From Candidatus Borrarchaeum weybense (GTDB lineage Archaea > Asgardarchaeota > Sifarchaeia > Borrarchaeales > Borrarchaeaceae): 64,000 bases of DNA. Position numbers and translations under genes: made by a program. The notes under the pieces were generated by a model. It made no database searches. It saw nothing but the letters and a program-made list of their open reading frames with translations, and was not told the origin of the DNA. Every line of letters starts with the position of its first letter. The first letter of the stretch is position 1. The DNA lies in the NCBI GenBank assembly GCA_019057385.1, contig JAHQJS010000004.1, positions 773,062-837,061 of the forward strand, given 5' to 3'. This document shows positions 3,288-6,555 of the stretch, in pieces.

Positions 3288-3569
3288 TTATTTCTTTTTC
3301 AACGTGATTTCGATAGTACTTACGCTTCGAGTTCTTCCCCCTTCTTCGGCTAACTCCTCACTATCAATCTCGATCTTATCGACAAAAACGATGTCTTTCA
3401 TAAAACGCTGTCTCACGATCTCGGCGACATCTACTGCTGTCGATATAGATCGACCTCTAGCTTTAAGCGTACAGAAGTCAGATCCTTGATTGAGTTGAGT
3501 GACGACTGCAAGGACGTAGTTCATTACAGGCTTGCGCCCGATGTATATGTTGTTGTCTCTTCCGGACAT
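3288..3569 (-). CDS. albA: DNA/RNA-binding chromatin protein Alba (downstream copy)
   Basis: [40 protein letters not shown]; GGAGG SD upstream. Confidence 0.97.
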
Positions 3570-3936
3570 ATGGACATTCCTCCGTTCTCAAACAGGTTTG
3601 TTTTTTTATTGTGTATTAAGGTATTTTTGAGTTTTTTACTTCTTCTTAGTAAGCGTAATTTCCATAGTACTTACGCTTCGAGTTCTTCCCCCTTCTTCGG
3701 CTAACTCCTCACTATCAATCTCGATCTTATCGACAAAAACGATGTCTTTCATAAAACGCTGTCTCACGATCTCGGCGACATCTACTGCTGTCGATATAGA
3801 TCGACCTCTAGCTTTAAGCGTACAGAAGTCAGATCCTTGATTGAGTTGAGTGACGACTGCAAGGACGTAGTTCATTACAGGCTTGCGCCCGATGTATATG
3901 TTGTTGTCTCTTCCGGACATATGGACATTCCTCCGT
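3313..3936. repeat. 273-bp direct repeat (3313-3585 and 3664-3936) covering both alba genes and their SD
   Basis: The two segments read identically at offset 351. Confidence 0.9.
3636..3920 (-). CDS. albA: DNA/RNA-binding chromatin protein Alba (upstream copy)
   Basis: Same Alba motifs; protein identical to the other copy except the last residues. Confidence 0.97.
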
Positions 3937-4131: not shown

Positions 4132-6555
4132 ATGATTAACTTGAAAAAAGATTTTCTAGGTTCTTCTCTTATAATACTCATTCTTTTAAGCTTTATCATC
4201 ATATTTCCCTTTCAATCTGAACATCAATTTTCAACGCTTCCTCCTAAAAGTATAGAAAATAGTCAAAGTATATATGACCACTCTTATATGCCAATAATCG
4301 ATGATTCTCTCTTAACAATGCTAGAAAATGATGCAGATAAATCGATCGATTTAATCATTACCTTTGGTGGAGATAATTCACACACAAAACCTAAGCAAAT
4401 ACTGAAACAGATACTTGGTGATGATTTTGCCAAACTAGATGTAAAATATGACCTTGAAATAATTGATGCTGTGCTTGTCAACGCTCCAGTTAATATTGTC
4501 CCCCGTCTTGCAGAAAACAATCTTGTGAGTGGCATTTGGGAAGATAAGAAAGTAACTGCTCTAAAAAGTGCAGATAGAATAATTGATTCTCAAATCGATT
4601 CATATCTTGATGAAAGCACAGGTTTAATAGGTGCTGAGGAAGTTTGGGCGCAAGGATTCGATGGTAATGGGATTATAGTTGCTATAGTTGATACCGGAAT
4701 CGATTCTACACACCCAGATTTATCTGGAAAGGTAACAGCGGCAAAATCCTTTGTTCAAGGAGAAGATACACAAGATTATGATGGTCATGGTACCCATGTA
4801 GCTGGAATTGTAGCGGGAACGGGGGTAGCGTCTTCTGGGAATTATAAAGGAATTGCTCCCGGAGCTTCACTGGTCAATGCAAAGGCTTTGGATAAAACGG
4901 GTGCAGGAACAGTGTCTGATGTGATTGAAGCGATTGAATGGGCTTCAGATAAATCAGACATAATTTGTTTAAGCCTAGGCGCACCAGGGTCTCCAAACGA
5001 TCCACTTGCACAAACAGTAAATACAGCGGTAGAAAACGGAGTTATTGTTTGTGCTGCTGTTGGGAATGATGGTGACTTGGGATATATGACCGCTATGACT
5101 CCTGCCATTGCCTCAAAAGCGATTTCTGTTGGTGCTACAGTTGGGGATTTAGAGGTTGCATCTTTTAGTAGCAAAGGCATTGCCCCTGATGGAAGGAGTG
5201 ATCCAGATATCGTTGCACCAGGGTATCAAATTACTTCTACAGCATCTAGTAAAATCACTTCTTCAGATTATATTACTTGGAGTGGAACAAGTTTTTCTAC
5301 ACCTATGGTAGCTGGGGCAGCAGCATTACTACTTGATGCTACGGACAATTTGACTCCTGAGGGCGTTAAAGCAGCATTACTTGAATCTGCAACGGATTTG
5401 GATACCGATCCTAATGCACAGGGAGCTGGTCTTGTTAATGTAGAGGCCGCTTATCAGCTAATACAAAATAATGATAATTTGGTAACAATAACGCCTAATG
5501 TATTTCCAAGTGCGCCTTATGCCCCTGATGGAATTGTTTTTCCTGGAGATGCATTTGCATTTGATGTGGAGATAATATCAAATGAACTACTTTCCGACGT
5601 GACTGTGGGCTTTGAAGGTCTTGCGTGGTCTTTTGTCAAGGCTACACCTTCTTCCATTAGTAGTGTAGACAGATATGCCATTGTTACTGTATCAGTCATA
5701 ATTCCGCCAGTGGCAGTTCCATTTACTTACTCAGGACGTTTGGTAGTTAAAGAGGCAGGAACGACAGTTGCGTCAAGTCAAATTGACTTGGAAGTTAGAG
5801 CTCCTATTGCTAGAGTTCTGTGGGATCAATCACATGATGCAGATGGATATTTTGGATACTATTATGGCGACAGTCCTTATAGTATGTTTTACAAATACTA
5901 TGAAATACTCACAAAGCAAGGAATTGATTTGGATGTAACGACTGGAACACTAACTAGTAGTTCATTAAGTGGATATGATGCATTAATACTTCCTGACCCA
6001 GAAACAATGCTTCAAAGCAGTGAAATCTCTTCAATTAAGAATTTTGTTTCTTCAGGAGGAGATTTACTTGTCCTTTCGAATCCTCCGGGCAGTATTGTTG
6101 TGGGGGATACAGATATAAATGATGTAATACTTGATTTCTCAAGTTTAAATCAACTAACTGAGGTTTATGGAATCACTTGTATTCCAACAGTTGTGGAGGC
6201 AGACGAATTAACACTTTCAGATCACACTATTACAAGGAATGTTCAATCAGTATTTTATTTAGGTTGCGCATTAAGTGTTAACAGTCCAGCCAAATCAATC
6301 GGAAAAGCGGGTTCATATGACGTTCTTGCAGTTTGGGAGAGTGGACTTAGCAAAGTGTTGGTGTTTGGATCGGAGTTGGATTTCTGGGATCTTCTGATTG
6401 ATATCGAGGGATTCTCCCATACTCAACTGGCGAAAAACACCGTAACATGGTTAACATTTCCGTCTACGCTATTAATTGTTTATATAGTTCTTATCGTTGT
6501 CCCAATAATACTTGTAAGCATTTATCTCTACAGACGTTCAAAAAAACAGTTCTAG
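4132..6555 (+). CDS. Membrane-anchored S8 subtilisin-family serine protease with site-1-protease-like C-terminal region
   Basis: Signal peptide, I9-like propeptide, triad AIVDTG / HGTHVAG / GTSFSTP, oxyanion AVGND, Ig-like segment, RVLWDQSH GIFT/DUF4350-like domain, C-terminal TM and basic tail. Confidence 0.9.
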   Translation: MINLKKDFLGSSLIILILLSFIIIFPFQSEHQFSTLPPKSIENSQSIYDHSYMPIIDDSLLTMLENDADKSIDLIITFGGDNSHTKPKQILKQILGDDFAKLDVKYDLEIIDAVLVNAPVNIVPRLAENNLVSGIWEDKKVTALKSADRIIDSQIDSYLDESTGLIGAEEVWAQGFDGNGIIVAIVDTGIDSTHPDLSGKVTAAKSFVQGEDTQDYDGHGTHVAGIVAGTGVASSGNYKGIAPGASLVNAKALDKTGAGTVSDVIEAIEWASDKSDIICLSLGAPGSPNDPLAQTVNTAVENGVIVCAAVGNDGDLGYMTAMTPAIASKAISVGATVGDLEVASFSSKGIAPDGRSDPDIVAPGYQITSTASSKITSSDYITWSGTSFSTPMVAGAAALLLDATDNLTPEGVKAALLESATDLDTDPNAQGAGLVNVEAAYQLIQNNDNLVTITPNVFPSAPYAPDGIVFPGDAFAFDVEIISNELLSDVTVGFEGLAWSFVKATPSSISSVDRYAIVTVSVIIPPVAVPFTYSGRLVVKEAGTTVASSQIDLEVRAPIARVLWDQSHDADGYFGYYYGDSPYSMFYKYYEILTKQGIDLDVTTGTLTSSSLSGYDALILPDPETMLQSSEISSIKNFVSSGGDLLVLSNPPGSIVVGDTDINDVILDFSSLNQLTEVYGITCIPTVVEADELTLSDHTITRNVQSVFYLGCALSVNSPAKSIGKAGSYDVLAVWESGLSKVLVFGSELDFWDLLIDIEGFSHTQLAKNTVTWLTFPSTLLIVYIVLIVVPIILVSIYLYRRSKKQF

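Follow-up and report, generated by a model that had tools for sequence, protein, structure and literature searches.

The gene at positions 4132..6555 (forward strand) of a 64,000-nucleotide stretch of contig JAHQJS010000004.1 from Candidatus Borrarchaeum weybense, here called the window, encodes an 807-residue subtilase whose layout follows that of the eukaryotic site-1 protease (S1P, also MBTPS1 or SKI-1). The protein is best read, with a probability of roughly 0.6, as a catalytically competent type-I membrane subtilase of the cell surface that has an S1P-like body plan and belongs to a family found across the Asgard archaea. Its resemblance to S1P is beyond chance at the level of both sequence profiles and structure. 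A preliminary description of this DNA had proposed a prokaryotic relative of S1P; the S1P-like architecture that it recognized is borne out by the collinearity of hidden Markov models (HMMs) and by Foldseek and ESM-Atlas comparisons, whereas S1P is not the nearest relative when the domains are taken one by one. The proposal of an S1P body plan joined to orthology or descent and a signalling role is thus partly supported: the data show a shared body plan, not descent or shared function.

Domain layout and catalytic machinery

The features of the gene and its product are these, with Tk-SP denoting the archaeal subtilase of Thermococcus kodakarensis.

4132..6555, +, whole gene of the 807-residue membrane-anchored S8 subtilase (P0001), a single uninterrupted open reading frame of 807 codons
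4132..4224, +, N-terminal signal peptide or signal anchor, residues 1-31, hydrophobic core about 11-27 (Kyte-Doolittle; predicted helix 12-29)
4294..4566, +, propeptide, about residues 55-145, alpha/beta fold like the Tk-SP/subtilisin N-propeptide (VIA; phmmer against the PDB)
4609..5466, +, Peptidase S8 catalytic domain, residues 160-445 (Pfam PF00082)
4690-4692, +, catalytic D187
4786-4788, +, catalytic H219
5065-5067, +, oxyanion N312
5290-5292, +, catalytic S387
5467..5802, +, beta-sandwich domain, residues 446-557, all-beta in both predicted models
5803..6462, +, GIFT/GATase1-like domain, residues 558-777, opening with RVLWDQSH
6463..6531, +, C-terminal transmembrane helix, residues 778-800, the second hydrophobic segment (predicted helix 778-806)
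6532..6555, +, short basic cytoplasmic tail RRSKKQF, residues 801-807, and stop codon (read from the sequence)

A Kyte-Doolittle scan of the protein finds two hydrophobic segments only, at about residues 6-31 and 770-803, and a type-I topology is predicted from this pattern, the N-terminal signal being presumably cleaved. The C-terminal transmembrane helix is kept in close homologues. The KKQF ending was considered as a KKxx signal and rejected, the dilysine not being conserved; the earlier caution that it might be due to chance was well placed, and as close relatives end in RRQF, RKQF or RK, a positive-inside tail is the best reading.

The AlphaFold (AF2) model of the whole protein has a mean predicted local distance difference test score (pLDDT) of 84.5 and a predicted template modelling score of 0.84; that of the C-terminal module, sandwich plus GIFT, has a pLDDT of 89.8. 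Alignment of the propeptide to ProN-Tk-SP (3afg_A) in VIA begins at model residue 44, the PDB phmmer match to the same chain spans residues 69-441, and the linker at 146-156 is of low pLDDT. The beta-sandwich, for which no Pfam match was found, occupies the position of the Tk-SP beta-jelly-roll and of the S1P P-like domain. The GIFT domain combines a flavodoxin-like GATase1 fold with a GIFT sequence profile, and over residues 576-696 it gives near-equal, sub-threshold Pfam matches, all to GATase1-like/GIFT models (Glyco_hydro_42M 25.9 bits, ABC_transp_aux 25.7, DUF4350 23.5, MBTPS1_4th 21.8, IFT52_GIFT 20.7). Within RVLWDQSH (residues 561-568), D565 is invariant and H568 nearly invariant in the family.

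Residues 178-433 match Peptidase_S8 (PF00082) at E 7e-57 and 193 bits, and the domain has the S8 fold, the Asp-His-Ser order and the oxyanion Asn that define an S8A-like subtilase. All 31 sequences of the family alignment A3 share D187, H219, N312 and G385-T386-S387, a pattern from which the enzyme would appear to be catalytically competent. In VIA comparisons the S8 domain superposes on subtilisins with a root-mean-square deviation of 1.5 Å and 42-44% identity, and the model aligns with Tk-SP up to residue 539; the propeptide-S8-sandwich part is nearest to Tk-SP, at 36-41% identity, as against 21% to S1P.

Residues of the S1P substrate pocket have been published (PMC12067269) and were mapped onto the Asgard protein through the shared profile. 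The S1P S4 residues T286, D312, D315 and N348 fall on V261, G286, N289 and T323, in columns that vary across the family, unlike the invariant oxyanion Asn. The acidic S4 pocket, which in S1P serves the P4-Arg of R-x-x-[LK] substrates, is therefore not evident from the sequence here, although this mapping is by alignment only and, with an invariant D290 one position past the D315 equivalent, a shift of the loop is possible.

Resemblance to site-1 protease and to other GIFT proteins

The S1P-like strings quoted in the preliminary description are all present, in the order given, in the single 807-residue open reading frame. QGAGLVNVEAAYQLI closes the S8 domain, ITP..PY..FPG..DVEII falls in the domain that follows, and RVLWDQSH is succeeded in turn by GDSPYSMFYKYYEILTKQGIDLDV, SGYDALILPDPE and GGDLLVLS before the transmembrane helix and tail. 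The human S1P strings quoted for comparison proved correct, as seen in HMMER alignments to PDB 8UWC_A/8UW8_A.

At the level of profiles the relationship extends across domain boundaries. Profile A2, built from 32 sequences of the region after S8 and thus covering sandwich and GIFT, retrieves human S1P (8UWC, 8UW8) at E 1.1e-13, in an alignment that runs from the last strands of the S1P P-like domain through GIFT, and the GIFT domain of IFT52 at E 1.6e-22. With the full-length profile A3, positions 151-767 align to S1P 198-860 as a single collinear stretch scoring 289.7 bits; profile A4, which starts in the middle of S8, again yields a single collinear stretch, at 210 bits. S1P is the sole solved protein collinear with the family over S8, sandwich and GIFT together. 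In a single-sequence phmmer search of residues 440-780 against the PDB, IFT52 was found, and S1P was not reached even at E<=10.

The GIFT domain considered by itself has IFT52 and OST48, not S1P, as its nearest relatives. The Pfam model MBTPS1_4th (PF23090) scores 21.8 bits on the whole protein and 25.4 on the domain alone, below its cut-off of 27, and the match covers profile positions 35-108 of 275 only; scores for ABC_transp_aux and DUF4350-type GIFT models are as good. MBTPS1_3rd (PF23094) retrieves nothing from the genome at E<=10. A specific link to S1P is nevertheless hinted at by the comparison of GIFT segments according to their partners: at E<=1e-3, MBTPS1_4th matches 32 of 53 S8-linked segments (best 3.9e-12) and 18 of 91 from non-protease proteins, whereas IFT52_GIFT, ABC_transp_aux and DUF4350 match the two sets at similar rates. 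Both sets were recruited by similarity to the 807-residue protein, and their members, being relatives, are not independent. The D-x-x-H motif was rejected as an S1P-specific marker, many non-protease GIFT proteins carrying it; the fuller domain start [RK]-[IV]-L-[WF]-D-x-x-H is found in dozens of protease-free prokaryotic GIFT proteins.

Comparison of predicted structures places S1P first for the whole chain. Foldseek against the PDB returns two S1P structures at the head of the ranking, 9csd_A (E 1.7e-44) and 8uw8_A (E 5.2e-42), followed by Tk-SP; the S1P superpositions have template modelling (TM) scores of 0.60-0.62 by query and 0.65-0.67 by target over 705-710 columns, at 21% identity. A Foldseek check of the C-terminal module, suggested with the original proposal, likewise ranks S1P first (E 1.6e-17) and IFT52 next, because S1P alone covers both domains, and VIA aligns module residues 3-334 with S1P 478-874. 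In a rigid VIA alignment of the whole model the 50 entries listed are filled by S8 single-domain matches and S1P is not among them; this does not count against the Foldseek result. In ESM-Atlas feature space nine of the ten nearest named clusters to the whole protein are eukaryotic MBTPS1 and the tenth is a Thorarchaeota S8+DUF4350 cluster, all ten at 0.96, with generic S8 clusters at 0.88 or less, a ranking that mostly reflects architecture.

The sandwich+GIFT module (model m10f59a4095bd) also superposes on parts of bacterial GH88-family proteins, M28 peptidases and a Bacillota hypothetical protein, with TM scores by query of 0.64-0.76 over the whole module in the ESM Atlas. Judged from these models, it looks like a portable add-on to several types of hydrolase.

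Spread of the family and gene context

The source genome (4.18 Mb in 8 contigs, 100% complete, 7.08% contamination) represents a small Asgard lineage. The closest homologues are 76-93% identical, one of them labelled 'Promethearchaeota archaeon', and matching DNA occurs in sediment and marsh metagenomes. An exhaustive HMMER search with residues 445-780 gives 339 proteins at E<=1e-3; about 64 of the top 150 combine S8 with a downstream GIFT domain, and none of the ten S1P-sized proteins scanned from that top 150 is a eukaryotic S1P. Word-indexed searches likewise yielded family members and unrelated GIFT proteins only. The C-terminal module has some match in 284 of 301 Asgard genomes, and a query spanning the S8/sandwich/GIFT junction, at the conservative threshold of E<=1e-30, is matched in 106 of the 301, distributed over 35 of 70 genera and at least 17 of 30 families. 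Named members of the family come from Baldrarchaeia, Heimdallarchaeota and Asgardarchaeia and, outside Asgard, from Bathyarchaeia, the last on the basis of cluster names only.

Typical relatives in other Asgard families are 1220-1290 residues long and collinear with about residues 13-780 (E 1e-77 to 1e-108). These long forms add, after the collinear part, some 400 residues, a transmembrane helix and a zinc ribbon; the genus of the 807-residue protein has the short form only, in which the transmembrane helix comes straight after the GIFT domain. The genome holds two more GIFT proteins that are free of protease, one of 545 residues (L009:541-2178, minus strand, G000:C6) that passes Pfam IFT52_GIFT at 43.1 bits, and one of 386 residues (L010:1243-2403, plus strand, G000:C5) with IFT52_GIFT at 30.9, ABC_transp_aux at 34.2 and a weak OST48_N match. 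Both may be related to GIFT proteins of the IFT52 or OST48 type.

The protease gene is preceded immediately upstream by tandem and nearly identical Alba genes on the opposite strand, at 3288-3569 and 3636-3920 (both minus; 93 and 94 residues; Pfam Alba E 1.9e-21). An XPB/RAD25-like helicase (ResIII + ERCC3_RAD25_C) adjoins a 317-residue protein whose sole feature is a weak zinc ribbon (559-1914 and 2028-2981, both minus).

A different setting is seen in a Baldrarchaeia lineage and one other Asgard lineage, where an FtsX-like permease, an ABC ATPase and an S8-GIFT protease stand in a tight same-strand row and a convergent NTPase_1 gene overlaps the end of the protease gene, whose product has 1244-1261 residues. 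The FtsX-ABC-protease loci are as follows.

L040:6133-12308, FtsX-ABC-protease locus
L042:3086-9271, FtsX-ABC-protease locus
L045, FtsX-ABC-protease locus
L046, FtsX-ABC-protease locus

The gene for a 944-residue relative (L044:429-12835) comes immediately after the operon of an Opp/Dpp-type peptide ABC transporter, with an SBP_bac_5 binding protein and an M14 carboxypeptidase encoded close by, a setting that suggests protein scavenging. The idea of a conserved gene neighbourhood was rejected, the FtsX-ABC-protease-NTPase row being found in two lineages only and the Opp operon beside one relative.

Proposed role, alternatives and known systems

We infer activity, localisation, substrates and the part played by the GIFT domain along the following lines. 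The N-terminal signal would direct export of the protein, and a Tk-SP-like propeptide would assist its folding before being cleaved off. The mature enzyme would remain on the external side of the membrane, anchored there by its single C-terminal helix, from which a basic tail of 7 residues projects into the cytoplasm. Its exposed part would be a rigid three-domain head of S8, beta-sandwich and GIFT, in effect a Tk-SP-type protease (propeptide-S8-sandwich) to which a GIFT domain and an anchor have been added. The GIFT domain, itself non-catalytic, probably packs beside the substrate cleft and shapes or gates access to it. In S1P, GIFT residues help to line the S4/PF-429242 pocket (PMC12067269), and since the predicted packing superposes on that of S1P, the Asgard GIFT domain probably flanks the substrate cleft as well, by analogy and as modelled. 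Cell-surface proteolysis, either the breakdown of external protein for peptide uptake or the processing of surface proteins, is the most likely role suggested by these features and a likelier one than regulated intramembrane proteolysis; a working cell-surface protease is favoured because the active site is intact, the core is Tk-SP-like and the anchoring is external.

Several observations weigh against this interpretation. The packing between domains is a prediction. The neighbouring genes (the two alba genes, small membrane proteins, the XPB-like helicase and a radical-SAM gene) give no functional clue, a nutritional role is hinted at by one relative only, and the FtsX/ABC operon of the 1244-1261-residue homologues could indicate a transporter-linked role. 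Between residues 30 and 777 there is one N-x-S/T sequon (N406), where shuffles of the same composition have 4.9 +/- 2.0, an unusual scarcity for an archaeal surface protein. The RNA trace consists of one 250-nucleotide contig (4731-4980, in the S8 region, with 8 differences) from one wetland RNA-Seq metatranscriptome, and a few contigs of 90-95% identity come from another library that is probably DNA, too little for a claim of transcription.

The alternative closest to the preliminary description is that the protein is a true archaeal S1P orthologue or ancestor, making the first luminal-side cut in membrane-tethered regulators that an M50 site-2 protease then finishes. In its favour are the same architecture and topology, the position of S1P as top whole-chain match in structure and features, the enrichment of MBTPS1_4th among S8-linked GIFT domains, the presence of four M50 loci in the genome and the wide occurrence of the family among the Asgards, the archaea most closely related to eukaryotes. 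The catalytic domain, however, lies far nearer to Tk-SP and subtilisins and the GIFT domain nearer to IFT52 and OST48; PF23094 is unmatched and PF23090 stays below its cut-off; the equivalents of the S4 pocket vary; and the propeptide appears to be a single Tk-SP-like unit rather than the S1P A+B pair. The catalytic domain and the Pfam scores of the C-terminal domain had been named in advance as observations that could tell against an S1P relationship, and both point away from S1P even though S1P is still the best whole-chain match. The expected M50 genes do exist, but they are equally present in 14 of 14 control genomes and were rejected as supporting context, and neither an M50 gene nor a membrane-tethered regulator was found near the protease gene. 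No evidence for a link to regulated intramembrane proteolysis was found, and orthology in this full sense is improbable.

Independent assembly, in which a Tk-SP-type subtilase joined a sandwich+GIFT module that occurs throughout prokaryotes and the likeness to S1P reflects reuse of the same modules and not common descent of the fusion, deserves more weight, while still appearing unlikely. It accords with the occurrence of the module on bacterial GH88 proteins, M28 peptidases and hypothetical proteins, with the generality of RVLWDxxH among GIFT domains, with the closer non-S1P relatives of each domain and with the varying distance between S8 and GIFT in other long proteins. It does less well in explaining why the three domains superpose on S1P in their relative positions as well, why HMM collinearity spans the domain junctions and why MBTPS1_4th is threefold commoner in S8-linked GIFT domains, non-independent as those relatives are. 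That the protein might be a transporter accessory or scaffold instead of a working protease is very improbable: the GIFT family does include GldG-type ABC-transporter auxiliary proteins, as the Pfam ABC_transp_aux match recalls, and FtsX and an ABC ATPase stand directly upstream of the long homologues in two lineages, but none of the four catalytic residues is lost or varies, even in the homologues from ABC operons, no ABC gene neighbours the 807-residue protease gene in the window, and 10 of the 12 loci inspected have no such operon. A more far-reaching reading, doubtful on balance and put forward tentatively, would have S1P descend from an ancestral S8-sandwich-GIFT-transmembrane protease of Asgard archaea. 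The archaeal enzymes would then already process membrane or surface proteins at specific sites, GIFT gating the cleft, and so foreshadow the first step of regulated intramembrane proteolysis.

S1P is the gatekeeper protease for SREBP, ATF6 and CREB3 signalling and matures several viral glycoproteins. To our knowledge its sandwich+GIFT extension is unique among eukaryotic subtilases; no paper linking S1P/MBTPS1 to Asgard archaea was found in the literature searched. The Asgard-wide occurrence of subtilases that are intact, membrane-anchored and built around this three-domain head offers a concrete prokaryotic candidate for the origin of the S1P extension and hints that the S1P body plan predates eukaryotes. 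Were descent from an Asgard ancestor true, this body plan would be a previously unlisted Asgard-derived eukaryotic signature protein. The Asgard protease may also serve as a small, SPRING-independent and sequon-poor model enzyme for the role of a GIFT domain beside a subtilisin cleft.

The S8, P-like and GIFT build of S1P has been described (PMC11231238, PMC12067269). S1P (8UW8, 8UWC, 9CSD) and the Asgard protein share the order signal, propeptide, S8, sandwich, GIFT, transmembrane helix and basic tail, a type-I topology (predicted in the Asgard case), the catalytic D/H/N/S and the R-V-L-W-D-x-x-H start of the GIFT domain. They differ in that identity is only about 21%, that the S1P GIFT domain has about 380 residues with large inserts and the Asgard domain about 220, and that S1P has a two-part A+B prodomain, cut away stepwise at R-x-x-[LK] sites, whereas the Asgard propeptide, in whose sequence no cleavage sites could be recognized, superposes on the single Tk-SP N-propeptide in VIA; S1P works in a setting of SPRING, SREBP and the Golgi that has no counterpart here. 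Tk-SP (PDB 3AFG, 9UES), by comparison, is secreted and ends after the beta-jelly-roll, with neither GIFT domain nor membrane anchor. In IFT52 (5FMR, 5FMS) and OST48/Wbp1 (6S7T, 8B6L) the GIFT domain belongs to non-protease scaffolding subunits, that of IFT52 having no D-x-x-H at its first strand. The prokaryotic GIFT/DUF4350/ABC_transp_aux proteins (GldG-like) share this domain and its [RK]-[IV]-L-[WF]-D-x-x-H start, but they are mostly protease-free, many being multi-GIFT repeats or fusions to other hydrolases.

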